Shown: positions 5,728 through 43,534, numbered from the stretch's first letter. The stretch is 43,534 nt of DNA from Planctomycetota bacterium (GCA_016872855.1 VGYV01000002.1:1-43534), one strand, 5' to 3'. Notes: generated from the letters alone by a model not told the origin. Made by a program: numbers and translations.

Positions 5728-5728
5728 C

Positions 5729-14929: not shown

Positions 14930-14951
14930 GAGGAAGACGGCCTGTTGGCTC

Positions 14952-15662: not shown

Positions 15663-15837
15663 CTCCTTCTGACGGAAACATCGCCATGGACTGGTTGGAG
15701 AGAAGCAATTCTCGTGCCCGTGCATTCTCCCAAGGGGCGGTCTTACGCCGAAGTCGTAACTTCAACAGGGGGCACCACTTCTGGCGCGCATCCGACCCGC
15801 GGGCCACGCCCCCCCCAGGTCCGGAGCCACCCGGATG

Positions 15838-15946
15838 ACGGCTTACGTTGACAAGTGGCAACATGCAAGTCGCCACATTCCTGCACTCTCGCACGTTACC
15901 ACTTGCCTCATAAAGGCTTACGTCATGTTGACATTCGGCAACGTGG
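15838..15946. promoter_or_regulatory. Two copies of a roughly 25-nt motif, each containing an imperfect palindrome, in the leader/promoter region of the PEP-CTERM gene
   Basis: GGCTTACGTTGACAAGTGGCAACATG (about 15838-15865) and GGCTTACGTCATGTTGACATTCGGCAACGTG (about 15914-15946). Each core is GTTGAC-N4-GGCAAC (GTTG...CAAC palindromic ends) at 15847-15862 and 15927-15942. The region is visibly less GC-rich than its flanks. Confidence 0.4.
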
Positions 15947-15990
15947 GAACCGGGCAAATCAACATGCCCGTGCCCCCAGGATCCACACGA

Positions 15991-17112: not shown

Positions 17113-17189
17113 CTCACGGCGCTGCGCCGTGGCAGCGTGGCTCGCCGGTCGCTCTGGCAGGGCTCATCTCCTGTCAAGGCTGCCTCGCG

Positions 17190-17687
17190 CTACAGGTCGT
17201 AGAGGCCGTCGTCGTAGGTCGGCGCTCCGCCGGCCCCGCCGTCGGGACCCTCCTCGCCGAGAGCATCTCCCATCTCCTCCTCGACCTTATCTGGGTCCTC
17301 GCCGGCTTCGAGGCGACGGAGCATCTCGTCCATCTCGGGGGTCAGGCTCTCGCCGCTGGCATCGGACAGGCGCCGCATGACGGAAGCGAGCTGCCGCGGG
17401 TCGTTCTCGTCCACCGACTCCATATCCCGGCTGATCTCTGCCATCGCGCGTTCCATGCGCGCCTCGTCGGCCGGGCTCAGGTCGTCGTCGGCTTCGGGCG
17501 CTGAGGATTCCCGCCCCTTGCTGCTGCCGCTGCCCTTCCGTCCCGTCGCGAACAGGGACAAGCGCTTGCTCATCCTCCGGCCGCCGCACTTCGGGCACGC
17601 CGGCGTGCGCTTCGCTGCCTCGGGAGTCCGCGCCAGAAAGTTGAAGATGCGGTTGCAGTCCTCGCAGAGGAACTCATACATCGGCAC
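17190..17687 (-). CDS. FmdB-family zinc-ribbon protein (CxxC..CxxC) with an acidic tail
   Basis: AGGAGA-N7-GTG 17687. MPMYEFLCEDCNRIFNFLARTPEAAKRTPACPKCGGRRMSKRLS is the canonical FmdB/CxxC_CxxC_SSSS N-terminus. Confidence 0.8.
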   Translation of the reverse strand: MPMYEFLCEDCNRIFNFLARTPEAAKRTPACPKCGGRRMSKRLSLFATGRKGSGSSKGRESSAPEADDDLSPADEARMERAMAEISRDMESVDENDPRQLASVMRRLSDASGESLTPEMDEMLRRLEAGEDPDKVEEEMGDALGEEGPDGGAGGAPTYDDGLYDL

Positions 17688-17704
17688 CGCGAGCTCTCCT
17701 CTTC

Positions 17705-20700
17705 TCAGCGATTCCCACCGGCCGTGGCCTTCGGGTCGGGGTCTCGTGGGCCTGGTTCAGCGGCTGGTTCGGCGGGCCTCAGCTTCAGGGCAGGGTCGCC
17801 GAGGAGGTTGTAGACCTCCAGAGCTCCCGCCGAGGAGCACCTGCCACCGGCATATCGCAACGCGTCCGCGACTGCGTCGCCCAACACGCGGTTGCCCGGC
17901 CTCAGGCTGGCCTGGAGGAACCCTTCCCCAAGCACCTTGCTCTGGCCATTGAGGAGGAGCCCCGACGGCCCCAGGAACGCAACGGCGCCGCCGTCAGGCT
18001 GCAACACCAATGCCTCGCCGAGGCACTCGTAGCCTGGGACATCGAACCGGCCGGCCACGCAACTCAGAGCGGTCACGACGGGCAGGCGGTCGCCGTTGTT
18101 CAGGGCGGCCGCGTCGTTGCGGGTCAGCAGCCCCTCTTGCGCCAGGCGGTCCATGCCGCCGTGGCCCAGGTAGTTCACGAGCAATGCCCCGTCCAGGAAT
18201 CCCTGGCGGAGCTGCCCGCGGACCACGCTCAGCGGGGCGCTCGACAAGTACGCCTTGCTCACCGAGTAGCCTGGGGGAATGCTCCGAGCCAACTCGTCGC
18301 TGTCCCGCGGGAAGTCCCCTCCCCCATCGGCGTTGTCCGCCGCCATCACGACCTGCTTCGTCCAGCTCCCCGAGCTGCGCTCGTAGGCGATGATCTTCTG
18401 GACGAGGGCGTCGAACTCCGCCGCGCCGGTCGCCGGCAGGCGCCCGATGGCCAACTGCGGCGCGAACTGGCGGTCCGCCACGAACAACCCGTAGGCCGTG
18501 CTCTTCAGGAGCGCCGGCACCAGGTTGTCGCCGTAGCCCAGGTAGTTCTTGTAGTCATACGTGCCCCTCCCGGCCAGCACGACGTACTTCGGCCCCCTTC
18601 GCCAGCTTCCGCAGGCATGTGCGAGGAACGCCTGGATCGCGTGCGGGTCAGCGATGCCGTGGTTGAACTCGTCGTAGATGTCTTCGAGCATCACCACCAT
18701 CGCGGCGAGGCCCTGGCCCGCCCGATAGGCGGCCAGGGCCTGGGCGGCCTCCTTCAGCTCCGCGGGCGCGATCAGCACATAGCCTGCGCGCTTGCCTCGG
18801 TCCATAAGCTCCGATGGCTCGTCCGTAAGCAACGACACGGGCCGCTTCGCCGCCTGAGGCGTCACGGCCAGGCAGGTGCTGTCAGGTCCTGGCGACGCGA
18901 AGCTCACCCGGTAGCCGCCCGCCGCCTCCTCGACGGTCGCCCCGATCACGTGCCTCGGCTTCCTGGGCGTGGACACGTCGAGGACGATGACCTGCGGTTG
19001 GGTGAATCCGCCGATGGTCACTACGCCGTGCCCCGCCATCGGACACAGCAACGCGTCCCCCCGGGCCTCGTAGAGCCGCTCGTAGGCCAGATCGAACGAA
19101 TCCACGTAGAAGATGCTGTAGGGGGCCCCCGTGTCGAGGATGCCCTCCACGGTCACCGTGTTTGCGCCGGGCACGAGGAGCGCCCCCGACACGGGCAACG
19201 TCAGCGACTGGGCGCCGAGGCCGTCCCACCAGGTCTCGCCAACGGCAGCGCCGTTCAGGAAGACCCGAGCGTGGTGGTCTGGCTGGGCCTTCGTGCTCGT
19301 CGCCCCCTTGAGGTGGACGGTCAAGGCGGCGCTGCCCGTCAAGGCCGCGCCGTCGGCTCGCACCGTGAAGGACTTGCGGTCTGCGCCCCGTTGGCCGCTG
19401 ACAACATAGTCCCAGAGCCAGAAGTCCCCCTCCGGGTCGCGGAAGAGGCCAGTGGCTGGGTACCGGTCTTCCTCGGCATGGACAGCTTCGGTGAATGTCT
19501 GCGCCGCAGCGGCCGGCTGGACGCCGCTCTCCCCGGTCTCGGCCATCAGGTCACCCAGGCCGAACCGCAGCCAGTACACGTTCTCGTCGGTGTAGATACT
19601 GTCAATCGCCTGGCCATAGAAGTAGAGGCCGACACCCCCCTCCGCTGGGAGATAGGCCACGGGCTCGCCGCGACAGGCGAGGGAGAAGTGGCCCAGCTCG
19701 ATCAGCCGCGCGACGGACCGCGCGGAGCCCGCGAACAGCGGCGCGAGGTCCTCTGCGGCCAGGTAGTATAGCCCATTCTCCTTCACCCCGATCTTCACCG
19801 CTTGCCCCGCGGCCCTCGCGCGGGCACGGACGGGCGTCTTGCCTGCTGCTGCGCGCCTTGCCGGGATCGCGCCCACCACGCCCGGTGCGGAGCGCGTGCG
19901 AGGCGCCTTGCTGTACGCCGGCCCGCTCGGCTCCTGCCTCGGGCCCGCAACTTCCCATCTGCCGGCTGCCAGGTTGGCCACCGTCACCTGGCATGAGCCA
20001 CAGGCGCGTTTCGCCCCGCCAGCTTCCACTTCCAGGACATCGTATGTATAGGTCTGGCCCTCCTGCACGTCGGGATCCACCACGCGGTACGTGCCCCCCT
20101 GCGGGCGGTGAAGCAATCCGGGCAGCAGACCCTCGCCGACGAGCTTGGCCTCGCCTCCGGCTCCCTCTCGGCGCGTGACGTAGAAGCCAGCAGTCCCAAC
20201 CTCCGACGCCGTATCCCACTCGACGACCACCTGCCCATCCTCCACGCGAGCCCCCTTGAGCTGAACCTGCGCGGCCGTGGGCGCGGGCCCGTTGAGCTCG
20301 ATCTCTATCTCTGTCCCTGACTCGTAGCCATCGAAGTCTGCGATCTGGATCCCGATGTTGCTGATCTCCTGACGGTCCCTGTTGTTGATCGCGTACCGGC
20401 TCCAGTTGGCCAGTCCCTTCCCGCCGCCGGTGTGGGGCACTTTGTTGTCGGAGATGTTATTGGCACGGGCGTTGTTGAGGTCCAGTCGCAGCGTCACTTG
20501 CTGGCCGAGCGAGATGGTGGTCCAGTCGCTGTCCCAGTACGTGTCGTTCGTCGAGTCACTCGATGGGTAGCCGCTCGGCCCCGTCAACCCCGTGTTGAGA
20601 AAGAGGCACACGTTGATATGCTCCGCCGGCCCGCTACGGTAGTAGACCACCATCTCGTAACAGCCGTAGGCGGGAAGGCTGGTCGCGTGGTCCAGCCCGT

Positions 20701-23212
20701 AGTCCCATGCGAAGCCTGCATCGCTGCTGGTCGGCCATGGGTCGCCCACCACGATCTTGCCGTTCTCGGCTCCTTCGAGCCTGATCCGGTAAACAACGCC
20801 CCCAGCCGCCAGCGCAGTTCGCTCAAGGAGGGTGCTGGAGCTGCCGCTCCAGCCATCAAGCTTCACGAAAGCGTCAGGATCGTTGGCTTCGTTGAGGAGC
20901 TCAACATCCGGGATGCGGTACGCGTAGTTGGGAAGCACGGTGATCGTCACCGTCCGAGTGGCACTGACATCCTTGCCGTCGCGCGCATAGTACGTGAACG
21001 AGTCGGTGGATTGGAAGCCGAAGGGCGGTGTGTAGTTCAACGAGCCGTCGCCGTTGAGTACTAGCGTGCCGTAGCTCACGTTGCTGACCAGCGTCGCGGT
21101 GAGCGTATCGTAGTCGTTGTCGGTGTCGTTCGCCAACACGCCCTCGACCGCAGAGATGCTCAGAGAGCCGTTCACTCCGACGTTGTAGGCGTCCTTCCGC
21201 GCTGCCGGCGCGACGTTGCCGGCGTGGACGTTGAGGTTTACTGTGACGGTATCGCTGTCCAATCGGCCGTCGTTCGCCTTGTAGGTGAAAAAGGACTGGC
21301 CTGGGTTGTTTGGCGTGTACGTGAACGAGCCGTTCGAGTTGAACGTCAGCGTGCCCTTGTCCGGCCCGCTGACCAGGATCGCAGTGAGCGGGTCGCCGTC
21401 CGCGTCGGTGTCGTTCGCCAACACCCCTGGGGCATACACGGTCAGAACGCCGCCCTTGGCCACGTAGTAGGTATCGCCCTGCGCCACGGGTGCCACGTTC
21501 AGCGGATTCAGCACGGTGACGGTCACGGTCGCAACATTGCTGTCCACCGTGCCGTTGTTGGCGGTGTAGGTGAAGGTGTCGGTGCCGTGGAAGCCGGGGT
21601 TCGGCGTGTACGTCACGGTCTTGTTGTCAACACTGAGGGTGGCCGTGCCGTTGGATGGTTGAGTGAGGTTGGTGATAATCAGGGGCTTGTTGTTGGGGTC
21701 CGTGTCATTTGCGAGGACATCTATGATGACCGACGTATCCTGGTTGGTGGTGGCCGTGTCGTTGAGGGCGGTCGGCCGCGGCTGCCCACCGGCCGCCAGA
21801 GTCGCCGCGTAGGCATCCACGATGCCGTAGCCGTAGTACTGATCCCTTCCCGTTGCTCCCTTGTCTTCGGCTGTGGACTGGAGGATCGAGCGGACTTGGC
21901 TTGGGCTGTTGATACCGAGGGAAATGACGAGGGCCGCCACGCCCGCCACGTGTGGGGTCGCCATCGAGGTGCCGTCGAAGAACCAGTAACTGAAGACCGT
22001 CGGGTCAGGAGGAGAATTGGGGCGGTCAGCGCCAGGGGGCTTGAACGTGTTCTGGAGGACGCCGTCGGCATAGCTATCGCCATTCTGGTCGACGTCCACG
22101 TCGCCGCCGGGGGCCACAATGTCGAGCGAAGCCCCATAGTTCGAGTAGGATGCGCGTGTCTCGTCGTAGCGGGTCGCACCTACGGCGATACAGTAATCGT
22201 CGTACGCGGCGGGATACGCGACGGCGGGCTGGCCGTCATTGCCCGATGCGCACACAATTGTGACGCCCTTGGTGTAGGCGTACGCTACCGCGTCCCGGAC
22301 AGTCTGCCCTGGGTCATAGGGGACTCCGTTCGTCACCGGCCAGCCGAGGCTCACGTTGATGACCTTGGCTCCCTGGTCTGCCGCGAAGTGGAGCCCATCG
22401 GCCAGCCACTGGGCAGTGCCGGAGCCGCTCGCGTTGAGCACCCTCACCGGCATGATCGAGCATTTGAAGGCCACGCCGGCCACCCCCAGGCTGTTGTTCG
22501 TGCTCTGCGCGATTGTGCCTGTCACATGCGTGCCGTGGCTGTTCTCATCATTCGGATGGGAATCGTTGGCGACGAAGTCGTAGCCCGCCACGAACGTCGT
22601 CTGGGCCAGGTCGGGCGCTTTCACGAAGGTCTTCCCGCTGACTGGGTCGTTGTAGTTCTCGTAGGCCACGCCCGAGTCGAGGACCGCGACGATCACGCCG
22701 GCGCCGTCCGCCATGTCCCAGGCGGGCTGGACGTTGATCCCGCCACCATTGGGCCCGTGCCACGAGTAATGCGGGCTGGTCTCATCATGGGGCAATGGAA
22801 CGTCCAAGTGCCACTGGTACCCATAGTAAGGATCGTTGGGCTGCATGAAGGCGTGGCAGATGCTGTTCGGCTCCGCATATTGGACGGTCGGCTCCTTGCT
22901 GAGTGCCGCGACCATCTCCTCGACGGTCTTGCCTGCCGGAATCCGCACCCGCTTGAACCCGCCGAACTTGCTGGTGTAGATCTCCGTCGTGCCATGCCGG
23001 CGATGGACCGCCTCGATAGCCGCCTTCTCCGCCCCGCGCCTGAACTTCACGATCACCTCGCCTGGCACGAACTTCGGGCCCTCCGGCCCGACCCACTTGC
23101 GGACCCCGAAACGCTCCGCGCCGTAGCCGTTGCTCGCGAAGGACAGTGCGCTCAATGCGGTGACGAGGAGGTAGAAGGTCCAGCGCGGGATTGCGGCGCC
23201 CACCTTGGCCAT
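17705..23212 (-). CDS. Giant secreted dual peptidase: N-terminal subtilisin-like S8 domain, cadherin/Ig-like repeats, beta-sandwich region, C-terminal gingipain-type C25 cysteine peptidase domain
   Basis: Signal MAKVGAAIPRWTFYLLVTALSALSFASNGYGAE (ATG 23212). S8 triad contexts VIVAVLDSGV / HGTHVTGTIA / GTSMATPHVAG. Repeats ...VLANDTDPNNKPL..., ...VLANDTDADGDPL..., ...VLANDTDNDYDTL.... C25-like ...MLEDIYDEFNHGIADPHAIQAFL...VVLAGRGTYDYKNY...VNYLGHGG...PVVTALSCVAGRFD (His/Cys dyad). Confidence 0.85.
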   Translation of the reverse strand: MAKVGAAIPRWTFYLLVTALSALSFASNGYGAERFGVRKWVGPEGPKFVPGEVIVKFRRGAEKAAIEAVHRRHGTTEIYTSKFGGFKRVRIPAGKTVEEMVAALSKEPTVQYAEPNSICHAFMQPNDPYYGYQWHLDVPLPHDETSPHYSWHGPNGGGINVQPAWDMADGAGVIVAVLDSGVAYENYNDPVSGKTFVKAPDLAQTTFVAGYDFVANDSHPNDENSHGTHVTGTIAQSTNNSLGVAGVAFKCSIMPVRVLNASGSGTAQWLADGLHFAADQGAKVINVSLGWPVTNGVPYDPGQTVRDAVAYAYTKGVTIVCASGNDGQPAVAYPAAYDDYCIAVGATRYDETRASYSNYGASLDIVAPGGDVDVDQNGDSYADGVLQNTFKPPGADRPNSPPDPTVFSYWFFDGTSMATPHVAGVAALVISLGINSPSQVRSILQSTAEDKGATGRDQYYGYGIVDAYAATLAAGGQPRPTALNDTATTNQDTSVIIDVLANDTDPNNKPLIITNLTQPSNGTATLSVDNKTVTYTPNPGFHGTDTFTYTANNGTVDSNVATVTVTVLNPLNVAPVAQGDTYYVAKGGVLTVYAPGVLANDTDADGDPLTAILVSGPDKGTLTFNSNGSFTYTPNNPGQSFFTYKANDGRLDSDTVTVNLNVHAGNVAPAARKDAYNVGVNGSLSISAVEGVLANDTDNDYDTLTATLVSNVSYGTLVLNGDGSLNYTPPFGFQSTDSFTYYARDGKDVSATRTVTITVLPNYAYRIPDVELLNEANDPDAFVKLDGWSGSSSTLLERTALAAGGVVYRIRLEGAENGKIVVGDPWPTSSDAGFAWDYGLDHATSLPAYGCYEMVVYYRSGPAEHINVCLFLNTGLTGPSGYPSSDSTNDTYWDSDWTTISLGQQVTLRLDLNNARANNISDNKVPHTGGGKGLANWSRYAINNRDRQEISNIGIQIADFDGYESGTEIEIELNGPAPTAAQVQLKGARVEDGQVVVEWDTASEVGTAGFYVTRREGAGGEAKLVGEGLLPGLLHRPQGGTYRVVDPDVQEGQTYTYDVLEVEAGGAKRACGSCQVTVANLAAGRWEVAGPRQEPSGPAYSKAPRTRSAPGVVGAIPARRAAAGKTPVRARARAAGQAVKIGVKENGLYYLAAEDLAPLFAGSARSVARLIELGHFSLACRGEPVAYLPAEGGVGLYFYGQAIDSIYTDENVYWLRFGLGDLMAETGESGVQPAAAAQTFTEAVHAEEDRYPATGLFRDPEGDFWLWDYVVSGQRGADRKSFTVRADGAALTGSAALTVHLKGATSTKAQPDHHARVFLNGAAVGETWWDGLGAQSLTLPVSGALLVPGANTVTVEGILDTGAPYSIFYVDSFDLAYERLYEARGDALLCPMAGHGVVTIGGFTQPQVIVLDVSTPRKPRHVIGATVEEAAGGYRVSFASPGPDSTCLAVTPQAAKRPVSLLTDEPSELMDRGKRAGYVLIAPAELKEAAQALAAYRAGQGLAAMVVMLEDIYDEFNHGIADPHAIQAFLAHACGSWRRGPKYVVLAGRGTYDYKNYLGYGDNLVPALLKSTAYGLFVADRQFAPQLAIGRLPATGAAEFDALVQKIIAYERSSGSWTKQVVMAADNADGGGDFPRDSDELARSIPPGYSVSKAYLSSAPLSVVRGQLRQGFLDGALLVNYLGHGGMDRLAQEGLLTRNDAAALNNGDRLPVVTALSCVAGRFDVPGYECLGEALVLQPDGGAVAFLGPSGLLLNGQSKVLGEGFLQASLRPGNRVLGDAVADALRYAGGRCSSAGALEVYNLLGDPALKLRPAEPAAEPGPRDPDPKATAGGNR

Positions 23213-23589
23213 CCTGTCAACGCCAGTGAGTGTACGCACGGTCGTCTCTCCTCAAAGCTGTCCAGCAACCACTTGGCCAGCCGGGCATGGGGAGCTCGAC
23301 GCAAACCTGAACGCCATGGCGGATCGTCCGCGCTTGCACGCGCCGCTCAAGCAGGTTCGCCAGGCTTCATGCCCCGCCAGCCCTGCCCAGCCCAGCCCAC
23401 AATAGTACGCATGACCTTTGAGCCTACTCGCGCCTCGCGCGGCTCTGTCGGCCGGTCTGCCCATTCCCTTCGCAGATTCTACCACCCGTTGGCTCAGAAG
23501 CGCAAGTCTTCTCCGGCTCAGACCATAGCAGATAGCGGGAGGGCACGGCGGGGGCGAATTGCGCAGGGGGTCGGTGCGAGGACCGGCGG

Positions 23590-32910: not shown

Positions 32911-33810
32911 CTACGTCGCTTGCCTCTCGAGTAGCTCGGCCACGTCGGGGCCTGGCCTCCAATGAAGGTCGAATGCAGGCACGTGCGCGACCAGGTCGTC
33001 CAGGAAGCGAAGGACCATCGTCATCGGCTCGGGATCGTACCATGGGACAGATGCGACGCGCAGAAGCCGCTCGGCGGCTCCTCGCGGGCCCAGCGGCACG
33101 ATCTCGTTGGCGGCCGCCCGCCGGATGAAGTAGATGGCGCGAAGCGGGGCGCTCTCGTTCAGTGCTGCCCCCTGATCCCCGGGCCAGGGCGTGCCGTAGG
33201 CGAGGAACCTGCCGCCGACTTTCCGGAGCGCCACACGGTCGTCGCTGAGGAGCCTGAGGCCCTCACGCCCCGCCAGGTGAGCTGCCAGGGTGCTCTTGCC
33301 GGCGCCCGACTTGCCGGGGAAGATGAGCCCCTTGCCACCCATGTTCACTCCCGCCGCGTGGACGAGCGCCCCTTCGTGCCGCGCAAGGAGGAAGATCAGC
33401 AGAATCTGGTCGAGGGGGTAGGTGACGGGGGTCGCGATGGCGAGGCCGTCCCCTGTCTTGCTGGCCATCTGGTCGCTACAGTAGATCGTCACGTGGGTCA
33501 GGTCGCAAGGGAACCGGGCCGTCCAGAGCTCGGGCTCGGAAGGGCGGCGGGGATGGAGCGCGAGGACATAGCTCCCGCCGTCACGCGACAGACGCCACGA
33601 GTCTCCCGTATCGAAGACGACCCTCGGGCTCACAGGAGGAGGCGCGGCTCCCAGTTCCACGCGCACCGGCACATCGAGTGCCTCTGGGGAGCTGCCTGGG
33701 GGGATGCTGAAGGGGCCGTAGGAGGCGTCGAGGCCCCGGAGTTCGAGCGGATGCCGAGAGGTCAGGGAGAGAGTGAAGCCGGCAATGCTCAGGCTGGCGC
33801 GCAGCGCCAT
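32911..33810 (-). CDS. HPr-kinase/phosphorylase-related kinase (HprK C-terminal-domain-like P-loop protein)
   Basis: ...HEGALVHAAGVNMGGKGLIFPGKSGAGKSTLAAHLAGREGLRLLSDDRVAL...GTPWPGD shows the P-loop and downstream SDD typical of HprK-like kinases. Start set at ATG 33810. The ORF segment 33811-33954 has only about half G/C at third positions, whereas another frame there looks coding (see 33839..34009). Confidence 0.75.
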   Translation of the reverse strand: MALRASLSIAGFTLSLTSRHPLELRGLDASYGPFSIPPGSSPEALDVPVRVELGAAPPPVSPRVVFDTGDSWRLSRDGGSYVLALHPRRPSEPELWTARFPCDLTHVTIYCSDQMASKTGDGLAIATPVTYPLDQILLIFLLARHEGALVHAAGVNMGGKGLIFPGKSGAGKSTLAAHLAGREGLRLLSDDRVALRKVGGRFLAYGTPWPGDQGAALNESAPLRAIYFIRRAAANEIVPLGPRGAAERLLRVASVPWYDPEPMTMVLRFLDDLVAHVPAFDLHWRPGPDVAELLERQAT

Positions 33811-33838
33811 GTGGCTCGGTACCCGAAGAGAGAAGCGG

Positions 33839-34009
33839 CTACGACCCTGGCAGACTGCAGTTGTTGATCCAGCACGGAGAAGCGCCGGAGGCGGTCTTGC
33901 TCGCCGACTTGCAGCCAGTGGCCAACACCTCGGCTGCGGCCAGATCAATGGCACGAAGCCTGGGCTTCTCGTAGGGCAGCTTCTGCTACCGCGGGGACTG
34001 GGAGTTCAT
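33839..34009 (-). CDS. Candidate RiPP precursor peptide, interrupted by an in-frame TAG at codon 8 (33986-33988). The uninterrupted part is 33842..33985.
   Basis: Minus strand: GGAGAGGAGA-cagcg-ATG(34009) AAC TCC CAG TCC CCG CGG TAG CAG AAG CTG CCC TAC GAG AAG CCC AGG CTT..., giving MNSQSPR*QKLPYEKPRLRAIDLAAAEVLATGCKSASKTASGASPCWINNCSLPGS*. About four fifths of third positions after the TAG are G/C, which is gene-like. YEKPRL matches the YxxPxL leader motif bound by PqqD-type RRE domains. The core has 3 Cys, is Ser-rich, and ends in Ser. Too short to appear in the ORF track. Confidence 0.4.
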
Positions 34010-35246
34010 CGCTGTCTCCTCTCCGGTATTCCTCGGCGGCCTCCCCCGCGATCACCTTGTAGCGGAGATGTCCAAGGGCGCACAGGTACTCGGAGCAGAC
34101 ATCCTCCGCGCCGTTCTCCAGAGCGAAGTACGCAGGACAGTATCCACAAAACACCCGCTTGGCGCAAGCGCCGCAGGCGGATTCTGCTCTGGCCCTCTTC
34201 TCGAGGACCTGCGGGATCACCGTGTCCCATCCTGTGCGGAAGCTGTGTTCCAGGAGGCTGCACGAGGGCTCGGAGGTCATGAGGCAGGGGCTCAGACGGC
34301 CGACGGCGTCCACATGGAAGCCGGTGAGGCCTGCGGCGCACTGGTAGAGCGCCTGTGTGGGAGCGATGGCGCCCTGCCTGCGGACGAAGTCGCGCCACTT
34401 CTGAACCGTCCCCTCGTCCGCCAACTCCCTCGCCACGGCCTCGCGGGCCGGCACGCGCAGGCGCAGGGGCGTCCTGTCGCCGTCGAAGCGCGGGAAGATG
34501 GCCGCGTCGAAGCGGAACCTCACGCCCATCGCGGCCGCCAGTTGCTGCATGGCAGAGAACTCGTGGCGGTTGAGCGTCATCAGCACGGTCTTCAGGCCCA
34601 CGGGAACCCGCGCGTCGAGCAGCCGCCGCAGGCCGGCCAGGCAGGCCGCGAACGAGCCGCGCACGCCCGTGATCCTCTCGTACGTCGCCCCCGTGGCGCC
34701 ATAGAGAGTGACCTCGACTTGCCGCGGCGGCATATCGGCGAAGAGGGCCGCCGTCTCGTCGGTGACGAGCGTGCCGTTCGTGAAGACCATGACCAGCAGC
34801 CCGTTCTGCCTGGCGTGGCGGTAGATAACCGCAAAGTCCGGCCGCAGCAACGGCTCCCCGCCCGTCATGAGGAGTTCCAGGCAGCCCGCCTCCGTCGCCT
34901 GGTCGAGGATGGCGAGCCACTGAGCCGTGGTGAGCTCCCACGGGGACATTCTGCTTTCCCGCGAAGCGGCCTTCGGCGCCCCCTTTGGGGGCGGAAAGCA
35001 GAATGTCCCCCTGGGCCTGCTTTCGGATTTCCGCCCCGGAGGGGCGGACTCCGGAGTCCGCGTCTCCGACGCGGGCGGAAAGCAGAATGTCCCCCTGGGC
35101 CTCAGATAGCAGTGGACACAGGTCAGGTTGCACCGCTGGGTCAGCTCGACGCTGCCGGACAGGGGGACCCTCTGCTGAGTCGCCTTTTGGTTGAACTCGG
35201 TGAGGAACTCGACGTTGTCGGGCGGTTTGGTCAGCGAGCAGTCCAC
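33945..35246 (-). CDS. Radical SAM / SPASM-domain peptide-modifying enzyme carrying an in-frame repeat-element insertion
   Basis: GTG 35246 lies 2 nt after the PqqD stop. CNLTCVHC (CX3CX2C, 35109-35132). The core resumes at ELTTAQWLAILDQATEAGCLELLMTGGEPLLRPDF...VMVFTNGTL. SPASM motif ...CAAG...CGACAKRVFCGYCPA...C. About 55 extra residues (LRPRGTFCFPPASETRTPESAPPGRKSESRPRGTFCFPPPKGAPKAASRESRMSPW) are encoded by the 34942-35102 repeat. Confidence 0.8.
   Translation of the reverse strand: MDCSLTKPPDNVEFLTEFNQKATQQRVPLSGSVELTQRCNLTCVHCYLRPRGTFCFPPASETRTPESAPPGRKSESRPRGTFCFPPPKGAPKAASRESRMSPWELTTAQWLAILDQATEAGCLELLMTGGEPLLRPDFAVIYRHARQNGLLVMVFTNGTLVTDETAALFADMPPRQVEVTLYGATGATYERITGVRGSFAACLAGLRRLLDARVPVGLKTVLMTLNRHEFSAMQQLAAAMGVRFRFDAAIFPRFDGDRTPLRLRVPAREAVARELADEGTVQKWRDFVRRQGAIAPTQALYQCAAGLTGFHVDAVGRLSPCLMTSEPSCSLLEHSFRTGWDTVIPQVLEKRARAESACGACAKRVFCGYCPAYFALENGAEDVCSEYLCALGHLRYKVIAGEAAEEYRRGDSDELPVPAVAEAALREAQASCH
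34942..35102. repeat. Composite palindromic repeat element inside the rSAM CDS
   Basis: An 18-bp perfect inverted repeat: GGGGACATTCTGCTTTCC (34942-34959) / GGAAAGCAGAATGTCCCC (34993-35010). A 30-nt direct repeat GGGCGGAAAGCAGAATGTCCCCCTGGGCCT at 34989-35018 and 35073-35102 (84-nt period). Between them, a 45-nt module TCCGCCCCGGAGGGGCGGACTCCGGAGTCCGCGTCTCCGACGCGG (35030-35074) is identical to 41001-41045. Confidence 0.85.
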
Positions 35247-35248
35247 GG

Positions 35249-35548
35249 CTATGAAGCTTCCTGGACGAGTTCCGCCGCAAGGAGTTCGGCGATGAACTCC
35301 TGGATGTCGGCCTCCGCTCGGTCCTGTTGCACGGCAAAGGCATCGAGGACGGCATCTCGAATGTCGGCAAGCGTCCGCGTCCCGTCCAACTTCTCCCACA
35401 CGAACGCGGCGACGGGGTTGAGGCAGAAGAGCTTCTGCATGTCGGCGACCCTCCCGCGAATGGGCACGAGAAGGGTCTCGCCCACAATCTGGCGGGTCAC
35501 CACGTCGCCGCGCTTCTTGAGCACCAGGCCCGAGCTTGCATCTGCCAT
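35249..35548 (-). CDS. PqqD-family protein (RiPP recognition element-like)
   Basis: ATG 35548, 16 nt after the upstream stop. MADASSGLVLKKRGDVVTRQIVGETLLVPIRG...KLFCLNPVAAFVWEKLDGTRTLADIRDAVLDAFAVQQDRAEADIQEFIAELLAAELV is the typical PqqD/coenzyme-PQQ-synthesis-D-like pattern (...LN.sa..iW..ldG..t..ei...l...y.v......Dv..fl..L...gli). Confidence 0.8.
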   Translation of the reverse strand: MADASSGLVLKKRGDVVTRQIVGETLLVPIRGRVADMQKLFCLNPVAAFVWEKLDGTRTLADIRDAVLDAFAVQQDRAEADIQEFIAELLAAELVQEAS

Positions 35549-35564: not shown

Positions 35565-38500
35565 CTATTGCGGCCGCCGCAGGCGCAAGGCGGGGTCACC
35601 CAGGAGCTGGTAGAGGCGCGCGCTCGCTGGGCCAGCCGCAGATGCCTTCAGCACCGCATCGCCCAGAATGGCTTCCTGGCGGCCGAAGACCTGGCGGAAG
35701 AACTCGATGGCGAGGGTCTTGGACTCGTTGTTCTCCGCGAGAGCCGAAGGTCCCCAGAAGGCGATGCCGCCGCCGCCGCTCTTTAGGACGAACGCCTTGC
35801 CAAGGCACTGCACCCCCGGCAGATCGAAGCGCGCGGCCAGGCATGTGAACGCCGTGACCACGGGCATGCGATCCCCGTTGGCCAGCGAGGCGACGTCGGC
35901 TGTCGTCAGGAGGTTGCTGCCGCCGAACTGGGTCGCCGAGCCGTGGCCGATATAGTTCAGGAGGAACGCCCCGTCGTTGAGGTCGGCCAGCAGCATGGCA
36001 CGGGCGATCGCGATGGGGAACTGGGAGAGGTATACCCTATCCACGATGTAGGGCGCGGGCACGAGGCCTGACAGGTCGTCGCTGTCCTGCGGGAACGAGC
36101 CGGCATTGGGGTCGGCCTTGTCCGCCGCCAGGACCACGTGTCCTGTCCACTCTCCGCTGGCGGCCTCATAGGCGGTGATCTTGCTGACGAGGGCCGACAT
36201 CTCGGCCGCGCTCGCGGCTGGGAGCCGTCCGATGGCGAGCCCCGCGGGGGCGAGCTGGGTGTCGGACGCGAAGAGCCCGTAGTCGGTGGCCATCATCAAC
36301 GGCGGCAACAGATTGTCGCCGTAGCCCTGGTAGTTCTTGTAGTCGTATGTCCCGTTCCCGGCCAGCACAGCGTAGCGGGGCGCCGTCTTCCATGTGCCCT
36401 TCGCCAGGGCCAGGAAGGCCTGGATCGCGTGCGGGTTCGCGATCCCGTGGTTGAACTCGTCGTAGATGTCCACGAGGTCTACGGCCATCGTCTTGAAGCG
36501 CTTGGCCTGACGGTACGAGGCGAGGGCCTTCGCGCCATCCATCAGCACGTTCGGCGCGATCACCACGTAGTCCGCCCCGTTGCCGCGCCAGGTGAGGCGC
36601 GAAGGCACATCGGCCACCACGGAGACGGGGGCCTTCACCGCGTCGGGCGTGAGCGCGTAGTAGACGCCCCCAGGCGCCGCGGGCACGCTGGCCAGGAACG
36701 CCCCGTTGATCTCCTCGACCGTGGCCCCGTCGAGCAGTTCGGGGAGCCAGGGGTCGGACACGTCGAAGACGGAGATCGCGCGCTGGCTGAAGCGCCCGAT
36801 CGTCACCACGTCCCGGTCCCCTGTCTTGCACAGCAGGCTGCCGTTGACGGCCAGGTAGAAGCGCCGGTAGGTGAGGTCTAGCGAATCGAGGTAGAAGACG
36901 CTGTAGGGGGCTCCCGTGTCCCCGACGGCCTTGATGGTCACCGTGTTGGCCGCGGTGAGGAGTTGCTGGTCAAAGGGGAGCGTGAGGGTGCAGGCCTGCG
37001 TGCCGTCCCAGCGCCCCTCGCCGATGACCGTGCCGTTGAGGGCCACCACGACGTGGTGGTCGGGGTTGGCCTGGGTGGCCGTGGCGCCCTTGAGACGGAC
37101 GACGAGGGTGGCCGCCCCCGTCGGCGCCGGGTCCGGGGCGGAGACAGCGAATGCCTTGGTCGCAAGACTCGTGCTCTTGGGGGTCACATACACGTAGTCC
37201 CACAGCCAGAAGTCGGCCTCGGGGTCCGAGAAGACCGCGGTGAGGGCGAATCGGTTCACCTCAGCGTGTACCGTGTCGGCGAAAGTCCCGGGGGTGGGGC
37301 CGGCCTGCGCGCCGGAACTTGTCCCCTTGCTCATCAGCAGGCCCCTGGCGGCCTGGAGCCAATAGACGTTCTCGTCGGTGTAGATGCTCTTCATGGGCTG
37401 GCCGTAGAAGAGGATGCCGGCGTCGGCCGGCGCGGGAAGGTAGGGCACGACCTTTCCCTGGCAGGAGAGCAGGAGCCGCCCATTGCGGATGGCGACGCCG
37501 ATGGCGCTCTTCGGGATGCCCAGCAGGGCCGCGATCTCGGGGGCCTCCACGCGGTAGAGCCCGGCCTCCTTCACGGCGATCTTGATGGCCGGCTGTGCGC
37601 CCGAGGGCGCGGGCACCGACTGGGGCGGTGGGGTCGGAACCACGATCAGCTTCGCGGACTTCCCTGCCGCCGCCTTCTCCTTCGCCGCCGCCTGACCAGG
37701 AAGACCCGGCGCTTCGCCGCCCTGCACGCTTCGCGCGCGGCGGCTGAAGCCCTCAGGACCCAGGTCGGTCGCCTTCGCGTCGCGCTGTTCCTGAACTGTG
37801 ACTCGGTATGGCCCGCAGACGAGCTCGGTCCCCCGAGATTCCACCTCGATGAGCTGGTAGGTGTAGGTCTTGCCCGCCTTGGCCGAGGGGTCTGCGAGGC
37901 GGTAGGTGCCGCCCTGCGGGTCAGTGAGGACGCCGGGCACGAGGTGTTCGCTGACCTTCTGGAACTTCCCGCTGGCCTCGTTGAGGCGCAGGAGGTAAAA
38001 GCCCACGGTGCCGTGTTCCGAGGCCGTCTCCCACTCGACCACGGTCCTGCCGCCCTCGCACGTGGCGCGGAAGGCGGAGACGGTCGCCGCCGTGGGGCTG
38101 GCGCCGAACGTTGCCGTGTCGGTGAGCGTCCCGGGAGGATTGCCATCCACGTAGGTCACGGTCAAGATGTCACGGTTGTTCGCCTCGAGGATGCGGTCCG
38201 TGGTGGAGTAGCTGCCATCGTAGAGCTGCGCCTGGAGCAGTGGCCTGGTCTGGAAGACGATGTCCGTCCGCGGGGTCGTGAGCGTCTGGGTCAGCGTGAT
38301 CTGCGTCTGGCTGTTGACGATCTGGACCGTGTACTCGCCCATGTCGGGCCCGCTGAGGATCACGAACTTGTCGCCGGGCAGCACGCCATCGGTCTCGAAC
38401 TTGGCCGAGGCCGACGTCACGACGTTGGAGGATGCCGTCGTCAGATCGTTGTTCGTATTCATGAACACGTGCGAGTACGCGTCGGTCTCGCGCAGGGTCA

Positions 38501-40806
38501 CGTCCTGATAGTCGCCGGTCGGGCTGGAGACTCTGACGGTCCGGGTGTCGCGGACCGCGTCGAATGTGATCCCCGTGCCCGATGCCGCGAGGTTCTGAGT
38601 CAAGGTGATGGAGGTCTCGCTGTTGACGGTCAACACCGTGTACATCCCCGCGTTCGTGCCGCTCAGGATTCTGAACTGGTCGCCTGGCGCCACACCGCTG
38701 GTGATGAACGTGGACGACACCGAGGTCACCACCGCCAAGCCGGCGGTCGTCACCAGATCGGTCCTGGTCGTCCCGTAGTTGCTGTCCGTCACCTTGACGA
38801 AGATATAGTCGCCGTCGCTGTAGGTCGTGACGTCGTAGAGCCCCGTGCCGTTGACGAACGCCACGGTGCCGGCGTTGGGGACGAGGATGTTGGCGACGTC
38901 CGTGACAGTGCCGCCGGGGTAGCCGCTGAGGGGGGGTAGGTGTAGGTGGCCGTGGCGATTCCGCCCACGTATTCCTCGAAGGTGCCATTGTTCGGCGTGG
39001 GCGAGCTGGTGGCAAAGGACGGAAGGGGACTCGTGTTGCGGAACTCGCCCGTGTCAGGGTCGGTTTCCGTCAGGGCGATCGTCGTCGTGCCGTTGCCTTC
39101 CGAGTCGCCACGCGTCCCCGTCACCACAACGTAGATGGTCTGCACGGTATCGGGGTTGGTGTTCGCGGCGGCGTGATTCACCGTCACGTAGATGGGATCG
39201 CTCGCCGGCGTGCCCTCGGTCAGAGTGTAGCTCGTGGCGTCCGTCCCGTCGGCGCGCGTGAACCGGATGATGGGAGTCCCCGGCCCCAGGATCTGCGCCC
39301 AGTCGTCGTAGTTCACGCTGTTCTCGACATAGCGGGTCATGATCCAGTCGCCCGCGTTCACCCTGAATGTCCCGTCGTCAATCCCGCCGCCCAACGAGGA
39401 GGATGTGGGGAGGGGGTCCGCCGCATAGGTCTGGAACGTGATTGTGTCGCCAGTCTGCGGCTTGTTGGGGTTCTTGTTCTCGTAGATGGTGAACGACACG
39501 GCGCCGTTGTTTGAGGTGAACTGCGTGCCGGCGGTCGCGGTGCCCTGGGCGAGGGAGACGGTGCCGGCTACATCCCAGTTCGTGCCGTTGTAGGTCGCGG
39601 TCCAGGTCTCCGCCACCGCCGTGCGATACGTGTAGACCGTCGGGATCCAGCCCCGAGGCGTGGCGGGGTTGGAGACGGGATCGGTGGCGGCGCCCTGGTT
39701 GGAGAAGATGCCGCTGTCCTTGGCCGTCTCGCGGAGGGTGAGGGTCTCCACGTCGCCCGTCAGCGGATCGGTCACTGTGACGGTGATGGTCTCGAAGACA
39801 TTGGAGTCGGTGTTGGCATTCCGCGCCGTGACGAGGACGTACACATAGCCGCCCACATAGTAGTACTGGACGTCCGGCGCAAGAGTCTGGTCGGTGAACC
39901 TGATGGCCGGCGTGGCCAGGGTGATGACGTCGCCGAAGGGGGTATAGCCCATCCAGTCCTTCTGGAGAGGATCGGTGTTGGACGCGCTGGTCGAGTACGC
40001 CAGGCGGATCGGGGTGTCGGGGTAGACGAGTTGGTTCCCGAAGTTGTCCTTGAGTGCCGTCAAGGGAATCTGGAAGTCCACAAACCACTGCTCCGTGCGG
40101 TCGGCGATGTTCACCGCCAGGGTGTGGGAGAGGTTGCCTGCGTCCTCGATGCTCATGGTCGTCCAGCGGTTGATCTCACTCCCCTCGGGGTCCAGCATCT
40201 CCTGCGTGTTGTCGTTGTTGTACATCAGCTTCAGGGCGTTCACGTTCGTGCCGTCCAGGTCGAGCCAGTACTCCTTGTACCCGTCGCCATCGCAGTCAAT
40301 AAGGATATTCCAGTATTCCAGTGACGCGAGACCCAGTAGTCGCCGTTTCCGCCCTGGTCCTTGGGGTTGCCCTGCACGCGCAGGCGGAAGAAGACGTAGT
40401 CGTCGTTCATTGTCGCGGGGTCGTTGGGGTTCCACGCCGTTCCGCCGTTGTAGTAGCCGTACCAGACGGATGGAGCCGGCCCCGGGGCCATCGGGTTCGG
40501 CGAGGCCGAGGCGATGTCAATGCAGTCGGGCTCGACGGCCGCCGGCCCGTGGGTCGGGTCGGCGGAACTCTCGTAGTCCATGACCTTCCTGCCGTCTATC
40601 GTGTAGTAGGTGACATAGGGGTTGTTGAAGAACGTGCTCCAGGGCAGTCGCGTGTCCTTCACGCCGCCATAGAAGAGGGCGGCTGGGAGCAATACGGTGG
40701 CGAGGATGAGCGCGAAGGCGCCGAGCCGGAGGAGCGACCTGCGCCGGGCGCACCCCCTCCGCGCCCCAGTGCGATGCGACGCATGGTGCAAGCGCAACGA
40801 CCCCAT
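35565..40806 (-). pseudogene. Second giant secreted protein with a C-terminal C25 (gingipain-type) peptidase domain, split into three ORFs by two frame disruptions
   Basis: ORFs 40240..40875, 38789..40435 and 35565..38864 overlap and read as one protein once (i) one copy of the 8-bp tandem duplication ATTCCAGT/ATTCCAGT (40307-40322) is removed and (ii) one nucleotide is added to the 7-nt G run (38930-38936). N-terminal signal anchor (ATG 40806: MGSLRL...RRSLLRLGAFALILATVLLPAALF). C-terminal ...VDIYDEFNHGIANPHAIQAFL...AVLAGNGTYDYKNY...LNYIGHGS...PVVTAFTCLAARFD is paralogous to 17705..23212. Confidence 0.7.
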
Positions 40807-41386: not shown

Positions 41387-41406
41387 GCGACTGCCGATGT
41401 CTGCTC

Positions 41407-41439
41407 GGGCAGAAAAGGAGAATGTCCCCTTTTCTGCCC
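41407..41439. repeat. Short member of the GGGGACATTC palindromic-repeat family, positioned like a terminator hairpin
   Basis: GGGCAGAAAAGG-AGAATGTCC-CCTTTTCTGCCC, a 12-bp perfect stem 10 nt downstream of the minus-strand stop at 41449. Its sequence matches the right end of the 24651-24737 element (AGAAGGAGAATGTCCCCTTTTCTGCCC). Confidence 0.7.
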
Positions 41440-41448
41440 CAGGCGACG

Positions 41449-43534
41449 CTATCTTGCCCTCACGGTAGCCGTGACCGGGCCGCAGTAGGCGGAGGTCAGG
41501 TCAGGGCTGAGGCGGAAGGCCTGGACGCGGTAGGCGTAGGTGCCGGCGGCCAGGCCGGAGTCGGTGTAGGTCGTGGCGTTCGGCCCCACGGTGGCGATGC
41601 GCGCGAAGACGAAGGACTTCTTCACCTTGACCCCGCGCTCGACGTAGAAGCCGCTCTCGGTGGTGGAGTTGTCCGTCCAGGTCAGGGTGACGTTCTGCTT
41701 GGAGACCGTGGCAGTCAGGCCGGTCGGGGCGGCCGGGGGCTCGGGGGCTACGACGGTGATGGTGAGTGTGGTGCTGGCGGTCGCCCCCTGGTTGTCGGTG
41801 ACGGTGAGCGTGACGGTGAAGGTGCCGGTCGTGGTGTAGATGTGGCTCACCGTCGGACCGGCATCGGCACGCACTGTCCCGTCGCCGAAGTCCCAGTCGT
41901 AGCGGGTGATGAAGCCGTCGCTGTCGTAGGACGACGAGCCGTCGAAGTCGACGATCAAGGGCTCGAAGCCTTGCTCGACGTCGGCCACGGCGACCGCGAC
42001 GGGCGGCTTGTTGCCAGTGCCGCCGAAGTAGTCGATCCAGACGTAGGCCAGTGCCTCGTCGGCAGCCTTAGGCGTGTTGGCGGCGGTGCCAACGAGGAGG
42101 TCGCCGGTCTCCGTCACCTGGTACAGGTTGAAGGAGCGGATGGCAGCGGCGTCGCCCGATGCGTTGTCCACCATGCCTGCGAACCAGCGCTTGGTGGTGA
42201 TGGCCGTGGTGGGCGCGATGTCGCTGAAGTCGAGCCAGAAGCTGCCGTCGCACGCGGTGGTGGTGCCATCGAAGGCGAAGGAGCCGCCGCCGTAGTAGAG
42301 CACGTCGTCGCTCGGGAACCAGGCATTCGCGGGCTGGGTGGCCGTGGTGTCGCCGATTCCCAGGAAGACGAGCAACTGGTCCCGCTTGAGGTGGTTCAGC
42401 GTGACCTTGGCGAGCATCGTGGGCGCGTACGAGGGCCGGGCCGTGACCCAGCAGGCCTCGCGATACCACCAGCCCTCCTGGCGCCCCGCGGCCGGGGCGC
42501 CGGGGACCGCCGAGACGGACTTCAACGCGTCGTAGGCAAACCAGGTGAAGCCGCCCTCCTGCCAGCCTGTGCCCCAGGAGTTGGCGATGCGGAGGGCACC
42601 CTTCTCGCCGGCGTCCACCGTGCCGTTGCCATTGATGTCCACCCAGATGTCATCGGAGTAGCCGACTACCGTCATGACATGCCCGCCGATGCTACCGTTG
42701 ACATAGGTGGCGCAGTTCTTGCCGACGAAGGCGTCGTCGGCCGTGGTCGAGGGGTCATCGCTGGCGGGCTTGAACTGCCAGGAACCGATGTAGGTGGCGA
42801 AGTTCAGGACGTAGCCGTTGAGAAGGAGTTGCTTGAGCTGCGCGAGGCCGGCCTCCGTGTCCACATTCAGGACGCGGCCAGCCTGGTCGGCGCGCACGTT
42901 GATGGCCGTGCGCCAGACGGCCGGGTTGAGGCACCAGGCGCGGTAGTTGCTGTCGTAGGGGAACTCGGCCCAGGTGGCGACGCCGTGCTTCTGGGCGATT
43001 GCATAGGCGTCGTAATGCCACGACCCGCCGTCCACCCCGCCGTTGACCATGTTATACGTCCACTTCGGCGAGAAGCGGAACCCGTCGCCCCCGGTCTTGG
43101 CGTCCCAGCCGCGGGCCATGGCGGTCATGTGGGTCAGGGTGTAGTAAACGGCGGAGAACTGTGCACAGGAGCCGAGCGAGCCCTGGCTGCGGATGGGGGG
43201 AAAGTAAGGCAGTGTGCTGTTGTCCACGTAGCTCGCCCCCGCCTCCGCGGGCGCGCCCTCCCCGGTTGGCTCTCCACCCACCTCGCTGCCGAGGGCCGCC
43301 GGGGCCACCTGCGTCAGCTCTCTCTGGCCCCTCTTCTTCCTCTCCGCGTTCACGCGGTCGAGGCCCAGCTTGTTCAGCCGCACGCGGCCCGCGGCAACCA
43401 TGTGCTTGTCGGCCCACTCGCGCTGCTTCGCCGTGGGCCGCAGGGCGCCGGTCGCGTGAGGATCGTTGTCCTTCCGTTGCCCACCCAGCGCCTGTGCGGA
43501 CAGGAACGCGAAGCCAATCGCCAGCCAATTCCAC
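41449..43534 (-). CDS. Secreted papain-like (C1 family) cysteine peptidase with C-terminal PKD and fibronectin-type-III domains; the 5' end probably runs off the window
   Basis: Catalytic contexts IRSQGSLGSCAQFS (Gln/Cys), GGHVMTVVGY (His), IANSWG (Asn). PKD hallmark YDWDFGDGT. FN3-like PAAPTGLTATVSKQNVTLTWTDNS...GTYAYRVQAF. The frame stays open upstream of ATG 43401 to the window edge and encodes a signal-like WNWLAIGFAFLSAQALGG, so the true start is probably beyond 43534. Confidence 0.8.
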   Translation of the reverse strand, partial: WNWLAIGFAFLSAQALGGQRKDNDPHATGALRPTAKQREWADKHMVAAGRVRLNKLGLDRVNAERKKRGQRELTQVAPAALGSEVGGEPTGEGAPAEAGASYVDNSTLPYFPPIRSQGSLGSCAQFSAVYYTLTHMTAMARGWDAKTGGDGFRFSPKWTYNMVNGGVDGGSWHYDAYAIAQKHGVATWAEFPYDSNYRAWCLNPAVWRTAINVRADQAGRVLNVDTEAGLAQLKQLLLNGYVLNFATYIGSWQFKPASDDPSTTADDAFVGKNCATYVNGSIGGHVMTVVGYSDDIWVDINGNGTVDAGEKGALRIANSWGTGWQEGGFTWFAYDALKSVSAVPGAPAAGRQEGWWYREACWVTARPSYAPTMLAKVTLNHLKRDQLLVFLGIGDTTATQPANAWFPSDDVLYYGGGSFAFDGTTTACDGSFWLDFSDIAPTTAITTKRWFAGMVDNASGDAAAIRSFNLYQVTETGDLLVGTAANTPKAADEALAYVWIDYFGGTGNKPPVAVAVADVEQGFEPLIVDFDGSSSYDSDGFITRYDWDFGDGTVRADAGPTVSHIYTTTGTFTVTLTVTDNQGATASTTLTITVVAPEPPAAPTGLTATVSKQNVTLTWTDNSTTESGFYVERGVKVKKSFVFARIATVGPNATTYTDSGLAAGTYAYRVQAFRLSPDLTSAYCGPVTATVRAR

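Follow-up and report, generated by a model that had tools for sequence, protein, structure and literature searches.

A widespread RiPP-type cassette with PqqD, a radical SAM/SPASM enzyme, a candidate precursor peptide and an HprK-like kinase, and its probably inactivated copy in a Planctomycetota bacterium

What do three tightly packed genes for a PqqD-family protein, a radical S-adenosylmethionine (rSAM)/SPASM enzyme and an HprK-like kinase make together, and can the locus in which they lie still make it? The question is raised by a stretch of DNA from a Planctomycetota bacterium (GCA_016872855.1 VGYV01000002.1:1-43534), which was analysed over its full 43,534 nt and is called the window below; the cassette occupies positions 32911-35548. 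The answer to which we give a probability of about 0.7 is that the genes represent a widespread, uncurated cassette of the type that matures peptides made by ribosomes and modified after translation (RiPPs), composed of PqqD, rSAM/SPASM enzyme, precursor and HprK-like kinase, and that the copy in the window was recently inactivated or strongly attenuated. On the minus strand, an open reading frame (ORF) for a C25 peptidase is followed after 16 nt by the PqqD gene, 2 nt further by the rSAM gene, then by a small ORF and, after another 28 nt, by the kinase gene. The genes, their coordinates and these gaps of 2, 28 and 16 nt were all found as the original prediction had described them. The cassette had also been taken to be intact, and this is not so: the precursor gene has a premature stop, the rSAM gene a repeat insertion and the C25 gene a frameshift.

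That these genes belong together is seen in their relatives. A scan of one genome per species led to 80 loci; group A consists of the window and loci L001-L055, i.e., 56 loci from more than ten phyla, and denominators in the counts of co-occurrence are the loci with enough flanking sequence. PqqD lies within 5 kb of the rSAM gene in 52/53 group-A loci, a homologous peptide is encoded directly after the rSAM gene in 49/52, and the kinase accompanies the rSAM enzyme in 46/47, the usual order being [C25]-PqqD-rSAM-peptide-kinase. Since the same genes stand beside the rSAM gene in nearly every related locus with enough flanks, the clustering is far beyond chance. The earlier view of PqqD, rSAM/SPASM enzyme and HprK-like kinase as a RiPP-type maturation set is thus borne out by their co-occurrence with a conserved peptide across more than ten phyla, and the concern that the genes might keep company in this one genome only is answered by the same PqqD and kinase counts. 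When neighbouring ORFs were clustered without supervision, one more common gene came to light directly behind the kinase gene. It encodes an archaeal/SipW-type signal peptidase I (one example scores 54.9 bits with TIGR02228, cutoff 51.85) and is present in 34/45 group-A loci, for example L004 and L005, and in 61/82 loci overall. C25 peptidase genes adjoin the cassette in 24/46 loci, often abutting the PqqD or the peptide gene; L011 has second C25-peptide pairs, and the order C25-peptide-rSAM occurs in L037 and L043. Homologs of the nucleotidyltransferase NTP_transf_5 are encoded in 23/82 loci, often 1-5 kb from the kinase gene, so that both companions pointed out by the original prediction recur. 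Wzc-like genes are found in 11/56 loci from several phyla.

The small ORF between the rSAM and kinase genes (33839-34009, minus strand) is the predicted precursor gene of the cassette. It starts with ATG at 34009 after the ribosome-binding site ggagaggaga, ends with TAG at 33839-33841 and reads MNSQSPR*QKLPYEKPRLRAIDLAAAEVLATGCKSASKTASGASPCWINNCSLPGS, being broken by a stop at codon 8. A profile hidden Markov model (HMM) recognizes the portion after this stop with E = 1e-22. At the same position, the closest relative examined, L001 (GCA_040960625.1), whose rSAM enzyme is 67% identical, encodes MNSATQRQKKLLYEKPRLRAIDLAADEVLAVGCKAAGKSASGVVPCWTNNCSLQGS downstream of a strong ribosome-binding site, and 37/48 residues of the window peptide after the TAG are identical to this intact ortholog. 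Members of the peptide family, which were found by iterative searches with profiles built in this work, have a Lys/Arg-rich N-terminus followed by a YxxPx[L/I/V] leader motif (50/55 peptides), past which the leader reads xx[IV]xLxxEExLxxGCK, with an xCK junction in 47/55. Exactly three Cys residues are present in 42/55 peptides and a C-terminal Ser in 49/55, of which 36 end in Gly-Ser. A search of 5.8 billion proteins with the peptide profile gave 243 clusters, all annotated as "hypothetical" and devoid of Pfam domains, and scans of five precursor peptides against Pfam and NCBIfam at E <= 10 returned no family.

Peptides of a related kind are encoded in more distant loci (L056-L081), which show another gene order and are without curated models. 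These loci represent a third, uncurated cassette type with genes for kinase, rSAM enzyme, PqqD, signal peptidase I and rSAM enzyme, and examples of their peptides are encoded at 9166-9748 of L061 (Methanocella) and at 11138-11293 of L063 (Desulfobacter curvatus DSM 3379). Their pattern is WxxPxLxVLxRxxPEExVLxxCK...Cys-rich...S, and 16/16 of them end in Ser, compared with a background of 11%. An assignment of L056-L081 to the SynChlorMet (SCM) system was rejected, as the NCBIfam models show a separate type and the true SCM cassette is a neighbouring Methanocella cluster.

Upstream of the precursor gene, an intact gene (35249-35548, minus strand; ATG 35548, TAG 35249) encodes a discrete PqqD-family RiPP recognition element of 99 aa (PF05402, 58.7 bits, cutoff 23.4), whose top NCBIfam matches, i.e., ScmD, lasso PqqD and PqqD, each stay under their own cutoff. 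The rSAM gene (33945-35246, minus strand; GTG 35246, TGA 33945) encodes a protein of 433 aa (PF04055, 71.1 bits) to which the Pfam SPASM model gives no match. Our statements on its NCBIfam families refer to the best 25 of 52 matches, among which no family reaches its cutoff: scores of 69-94 bits are obtained with the models for AhbD, NirJ, PqqE, ScmE/F, MftC and GeoRSP, the cutoffs of which are 265-650 bits. In an alignment of 40 sequences, the CxxxCxxC motif (C39/C43/C46) is invariant, as are the SPASM-type Cys residues 303, 321, 358, 361, 367, 370 and 389, which follow the pattern CX12GX4C and CX2CX5CX2C...C. The AlphaFold2 (AF2) model of the enzyme has a predicted local distance difference test (pLDDT) value above 90 in its core and below 50 in the repeat insert and the tail, and Foldseek places SuiB, SkfB and PqqE on top, followed by BlsE, MoaA and the anaerobic sulfatase-maturating enzyme (anSME; TM 0.55). 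With both Cys motifs and with adjoining genes for PqqD and a conserved peptide, the protein has the features of an rSAM/SPASM maturase, an activity that is predicted. Its ORF overlaps the peptide gene by 65 nt (33945-34009), and the corresponding tail (aa 411-433) is disordered in the AF2 model. In L001, L002 and L083 (GCA_041320515.1) of the same Planctomycete clade, the end of the rSAM ORF likewise shares about 65 nt with the precursor gene, read in a different frame. Given the disorder of the tail and the overlap in another frame, the apparent conservation of residues 411-433 probably reflects the overlapping peptide leader.

The kinase gene (32911-33810, minus strand; ATG 33810) is intact and encodes a P-loop kinase of 299 aa that is HprK-like and of the ScmC family. 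It scores 28.6 bits with Hpr_kinase_C, just below the cutoff of 33.3, and precomputed matches to PF27840 (ScmC; PF27840.1) are on record for the window kinase (P0121) and for the copy in L082, with PF07475 also on record. Its GKSGAGKST and LLSDDRV motifs align to the active site in the HprK/P structures 2qmh and 1jb1, both motifs are invariant in the family, and the window kinase carries every family-invariant residue. The AF2 model has a pLDDT of 91.7, and Foldseek places PEPCK and HprK/P on top (E about 1e-6, probability 1.0). A Walker A motif, a following DD motif and a PEPCK/HprK-type C-terminal fold thus identify the protein as HPr kinase-like. A profile search for the kinase family, whose members come mostly from anaerobic, uncultured phyla, gave 1,700 clusters (50% identity) at E <= 1e-30 and 10,170 at E <= 1e-10.

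Together these components suggest how the pathway might work. The discrete PqqD would bind the YxxPx[L/I/V] leader, as do the recognition elements of lasso peptides and of linear polyphosphorylated peptides (LPP), and would present the peptide to the rSAM/SPASM enzyme, which is predicted to install at least one cross-link, most likely at the three conserved Cys residues. By analogy with paeninodin-type kinases, the HprK-like kinase would phosphorylate the near-invariant C-terminal Ser; this analogy, drawn already by the original prediction, has become stronger because the peptide family nearly always ends in Ser. Where present, NTP_transf_5 may decorate or extend the phosphate and signal peptidase I would remove the leader, as the example of LppS suggests, while the PorU-like C25 peptidase is a frequent, not a universal, partner.

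The window copy of this cassette carries three lesions. Codon 8 of the precursor gene, in the leader and upstream of the YxxP motif, is TAG (33986-33988, minus strand), the aligned codon of the L001 ortholog being CAG (Gln), and no ATG, GTG or TTG start lies between the TAG and the YxxP motif of the window precursor. In four metagenome runs from lake water, the Logan contigs have this TAG without differences. It is also present in L082, a JGI record with 100% identity to the window along its whole length (8,555 nt); owing to this identity L082 adds no independent check and probably represents the same assembly. The giant gene for the PorU-like C25 peptidase (35565-40435, minus strand), which scores 232 bits with Peptidase_C25 and 205 bits with the PorU model (cutoff 420) and whose stop at 35565-35567 is 16 nt from the PqqD gene, is split in two by a frameshift at a C7 tract of the minus strand (38930-38936). 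The resulting ORFs comprise 548 aa (38789-40435) and 1099 aa (35565-38864). The single C25 ORF of L001 maps onto frame -1 and then onto frame -3 of the window, C8 at the tract would rejoin the two parts into an ORF of about 1,650 aa, and contigs of four runs have the same frameshift sequence. Slipped-strand phase variation at the C7 tract is possible. An assembly error as the cause of the TAG and of the C25 frameshift was rejected, since Logan contigs of four separate runs agree, and a reassignment of TAG was rejected because TAG ends 9/22 genes of the window.

The third lesion is an insert of 48 aa (aa 52-100; about 165 nt) in the rSAM enzyme, in frame and directly after CxxxCxxCY, which is missing from 39 homologs in the alignment. 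It stems from a high-copy palindromic repeat (34937-35103, to which no strand is assigned) built of a 23-nt unit that occurs twice in direct and once in inverted orientation, with GGGGACATTCTGCTTTCC as its core. In four metagenome runs, read depth at the repeat is 250-1000x compared with 9-15x in its flanks, an excess of about 50-70-fold; Logan contigs break at the repeat, which in many contigs stands between differing flanking sequences. The repeat RNA is predicted to fold with -117.7 kcal/mol (z = -7.5). Depth excess and varied flanks identify the repeat as a dispersed high-copy element, so that the element at 34937-35103 is a member of a dispersed family resembling repetitive extragenic palindromic sequences or miniature inverted-repeat transposable elements (REP/MITE-like). 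It is reminiscent of the Rickettsia palindromic elements, which insert into ORFs. Here too, an assembly error was rejected, given that Logan contigs break at the repeat with the 50-70-fold depth excess. Elsewhere in the window, a hairpin at 41395-41432 (cagaaaagg...ccttttctg), just downstream of a gene for a papain/PKD protease (41449-43401), holds a copy of the repeat core with 2 mismatches and may be a terminator or a degenerate copy of the repeat.

A signal peptidase I was not found in the window, including the 490-nt gap after the kinase gene: hmmsearch at E <= 10 returned nothing, and tblastn gave chance-level matches elsewhere only. With the lesions described, the window copy is probably non-functional, and the cassette appears to have been caught early in its decay.

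Several points weigh against our interpretation. For every member of the family, we infer the chemistry of the cross-link, the phosphorylation site and the cleavage site, and LPP are phosphorylated at Ser3 of the core instead of at the C-terminus (PMC13381572). With regard to the window copy, a different insert of about 25 aa occurs at the same site of the rSAM enzyme P0003, which indicates that insertions are tolerated in this loop. Signal peptidase I is also missing from the Planctomycete relatives L001, L002 and L083, whose precursors are intact, so its absence is a trait of the clade and not a lesion. Since PqqD, kinase and rSAM core are intact and have their invariant residues, any decay must be recent. 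Low-level function via read-through of the TAG or slippage at the C7 tract is possible, and the evidence for the lesions consists of assembled contigs, which hide minority variants. The runs listed as containing the cassette include none of RNA.

Rather unlikely, in our estimate, is a different role of the kinase, which might phosphorylate a Ser or Thr inside the peptide, close to where the leader is cleaved, or might act as a phosphorylase or a scaffold, the C-terminal Gly-Ser then serving another purpose, for example recognition by the rSAM enzyme, an exporter or the PorU-like C25 enzyme. Phosphorylation of core Ser3 by LppK (PMC13381572), the bifunctionality of HprK/P and the frequency of Ser and Thr after the xCK junction are all consistent with such a role. 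However, the C-terminal Ser alone is invariant across the family, and HprK homologs of lasso peptide clusters specifically recognize a C-terminal Ser and make few other demands on the sequence (PMC8498205), which argues for the C-terminal Ser as the target.

It is unlikely that the window cassette is fully functional. In that case, the TAG would be read through by a near-cognate Gln-tRNA, or translation would initiate at a CTG two codons before the Tyr of the leader motif, the rSAM loop would be tolerated and the C25 gene would be phase-variable via its C7 tract. The retention of all invariant residues in kinase, PqqD and rSAM core fits such a scenario, and past the TAG the peptide shows the same degree of conservation (37/48) as the flanking genes. 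Also, the insert keeps the reading frame, forms a disordered surface loop according to prediction and occupies a site where another homolog has an insert, and homopolymer tracts can slip. On the other hand, TAG is an ordinary stop in the window, no ribosome-binding site precedes the CTG, and three independent lesions have accumulated in one cassette, none of which occurs in L001, L002 or L083, so that decay is the simpler explanation.

The surroundings of the cassette bear on yet another idea. HMM scans of the window detected Wza-like, Wzc-like, CpsB and Wzy_C genes together with two PEP-CTERM proteins, in agreement with the exopolysaccharide/PEP-CTERM setting that had been proposed. The NTP_transf_5 gene (15991-17112, minus strand), which belongs to the same strand block at a distance of 17 kb, was confirmed by PF14907 (208.9 bits) and possibly encodes a distal tailoring enzyme of the cassette. 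The C25 peptidase might serve as another protease, as a transpeptidase or as a partner of the peptide. PorU is a sortase-type transpeptidase in type IX secretion. One might imagine that the rSAM-cross-linked peptide is phosphorylated at its invariant C-terminal Ser, phosphoglycosylated by NTP_transf_5 and then coupled or anchored to surface polysaccharide by the PorU-like C25 enzyme or by Wzy/Wzc. If true, this speculation, which we consider improbable, would mean a conjugate of ribosomal peptide and glycan that ties RiPP chemistry to exopolysaccharide and PEP-CTERM biology, and the siting in polysaccharide loci (11/56 loci here, capsule loci for LPP) as well as the C25-peptide pairs of L011, L037 and L043 would be functional.

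Very improbable is a maturation of a protein or cofactor by the rSAM enzyme, acting like anSME, like the haem enzymes AhbD/NirJ or as a maturase of the adjacent C25 protease: AhbD and NirJ do give its highest NCBIfam scores (94 and 84 bits), anSME is among its structural matches (TM 0.55), C25 adjoins in about half of the loci and a protein with an FGE-sulfatase domain is encoded elsewhere in the window, but the AhbD/NirJ scores are 5-6 times below the cutoffs and reflect the generic rSAM core only, the likeness to anSME goes no further than a generic SPASM fold, the rSAM gene has a discrete PqqD and the conserved peptide at its sides in about 95% of loci, C25-less loci included, and the FGE protein is encoded 24 kb off on the opposite strand. 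No anSME model is among the best 25 of the 52 NCBIfam matches, and no sulfatase gene adjoins. Membership in a non-peptide rSAM family, named at the outset as a finding that would speak against a peptide maturase, was thus not observed, no such family among these best matches reaching its cutoff and SuiB, SkfB and PqqE being the nearest structural relatives.

Other features of the window can be stated briefly. A second block of genes on the same strand (13430-23239) encodes a protease, FmdB, NTP_transf_5, a weak PEP-CTERM protein and a transglutaminase-like TPR protein. The protease, at 17705-23239, has 1844 aa with S8 subtilase, Big_9/cadherin and C25 domains; the FmdB zinc-ribbon protein lies at 17190-17687, the weak PEP-CTERM protein at 14952-15725 and the window's only transglutaminase-like protein (Transglut_core2 and TPR) at 13430-14929, 18 kb from the cassette. 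The protein with the FGE-sulfatase domain (5573-9985, plus strand) comprises 1470 aa, this domain being C-terminal and accompanied by HZS_alpha, the middle domain of the hydrazine-synthase alpha subunit, and a protein of 1127 aa without family match adjoins it. A match to the Rfam small RNA Acido-Lenti-1 occurs at 59-104 (plus strand; 50.7 bits, gathering score 37); an Rfam scan of the cassette itself gave no match.

The RiPP logic of such cassettes is known; what is newly recognized is the precursor family. Related cassettes have long been catalogued only as "systems" without a known precursor, and a conserved precursor family has now been identified whose leader motif, three Cys residues and near-invariant C-terminal Ser turn an annotation dead end into a testable pathway. 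The family links rSAM chemistry to the kinase and signal peptidase logic of LPP. For genome mining, the window holds the caution that intact enzyme genes can surround a dead precursor gene, and it also illustrates how a high-copy palindromic element can sit inside an enzyme gene without breaking its frame.

How does the cassette relate to known systems? A kinship had been suggested with GeoRSP, a pairing of PqqD protein and rSAM/SPASM enzyme, or with HPr-rel-A, in which a PqqD protein goes with an HprK-related kinase; both are uncharacterised systems (NCBIfam). The window cassette belongs to neither, as every score is far under the curated cutoff: the rSAM enzyme reaches 69.0 bits with TIGR04303 (cutoff 400), PqqD 18.3 bits with TIGR04302 (cutoff 100) and the kinase 43.2 bits with TIGR04352 (HprK_rel_A, cutoff 200), the last over the P-loop stretch 145-195 only. 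With SCM (TIGR04248-04251), likewise uncharacterised, the cassette shares a ScmC-family HprK-like protein, a PqqD homolog and an rSAM/SPASM enzyme, and by its precomputed record the window kinase is a member of the Pfam family ScmC (PF27840). However, SCM has two rSAM/SPASM genes instead of one and a different gene order, and the window proteins score 21 (ScmC, cutoff 125), 40.5 (ScmD, cutoff 100), 73.3 (ScmE, cutoff 400) and 76.3 bits (ScmF, cutoff 400). The Methanocella SCM cassette (15168-19179 of L061) passes all four cutoffs with 260, 136, 594 and 568 bits, which validates the negative result for the window. To our knowledge, the curators' note on SCM identifies no precursor.

Closer parallels are offered by characterised RiPPs. 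HprK homologs of lasso peptide clusters phosphorylate the C-terminal Ser of the precursor at its side chain, showing little sequence specificity otherwise, and in the case of pseudomycoidin a nucleotidyltransferase adds hexose to the Ser phosphate (PMC8498205). Clusters of the paeninodin/pseudomycoidin type resemble the present family in that an HprK-like kinase goes along with a PqqD-type recognition element, a Ser terminates the precursor and a nucleotidyltransferase is often found as well, and the [Y/W]xxPx[L/V/I] leader is common to both. In contrast to them, the present cassette has an rSAM/SPASM enzyme in place of lasso cyclase and B2 peptidase, and its core is Cys-rich and not lasso-like; none of the large ORFs of the window has an Asn-synthetase-like cyclase or B2 transglutaminase peptidase domain.

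LPP were defined in Bacillota (Nat Commun 2026) and first noticed inside capsule loci; their recognition element binds a YxxP leader, which a peptidase cleaves only with the recognition element present, and LppK polyphosphorylates core Ser3 (PMC13381572). [quoted passage not shown] In the window, recognition element and kinase are present, signal peptidase is absent, the NTP transferase is 17 kb away, no exporter was seen in the cassette and the rSAM enzyme is extra. Only the YxxPx[L/I/V] part of the LPP leader, YxxPxVLxHQxIxFETxxS, is shared with the present family. LPP clusters differ further in being devoid of rSAM enzymes and C25 peptidases, in their variable, non-Cys cores, in phosphorylation at core Ser3 and in having the MsbA-like exporter in their core set. 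Also, LPP are from Bacillota, whereas the present family is found in Planctomycetota, Chloroflexota, Nitrospirota, Desulfobacterota, Acidobacteriota, Verrucomicrobiota and others. The LPP paper is silent on rSAM enzymes (PMC13381572).

The predicted hand-over of a small peptide by a discrete recognition element to a SPASM rSAM enzyme is shared with the biosynthesis of pyrroloquinoline quinone (PqqD/PqqE) and mycofactocin (MftB/MftC), and Cys-rich cores, in their case cross-linked by SPASM enzymes, are shared with sacti- and ranthipeptides, SkfB being among the best structural matches. All of these differ in having other precursor families and no kinase, and their curated models stay below their cutoffs; moreover, sacti- and ranthipeptide synthases usually have a fused N-terminal recognition element, unlike the discrete PqqD here. 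Literature searches on RiPPs with HprK kinase, rSAM/SPASM enzyme and PqqD and on SynChlorMet did not find this combination described, and two papers mapping rSAM RiPPs mention no kinase, GeoRSP or SCM. Among characterised systems, LPP and the tailoring enzymes of paeninodin-type lasso peptides come closest, and the family, as judged from its sequences, joins their tailoring logic with an rSAM/SPASM enzyme, a Cys-rich and Ser-terminated core and, often, a PorU-like C25 peptidase.

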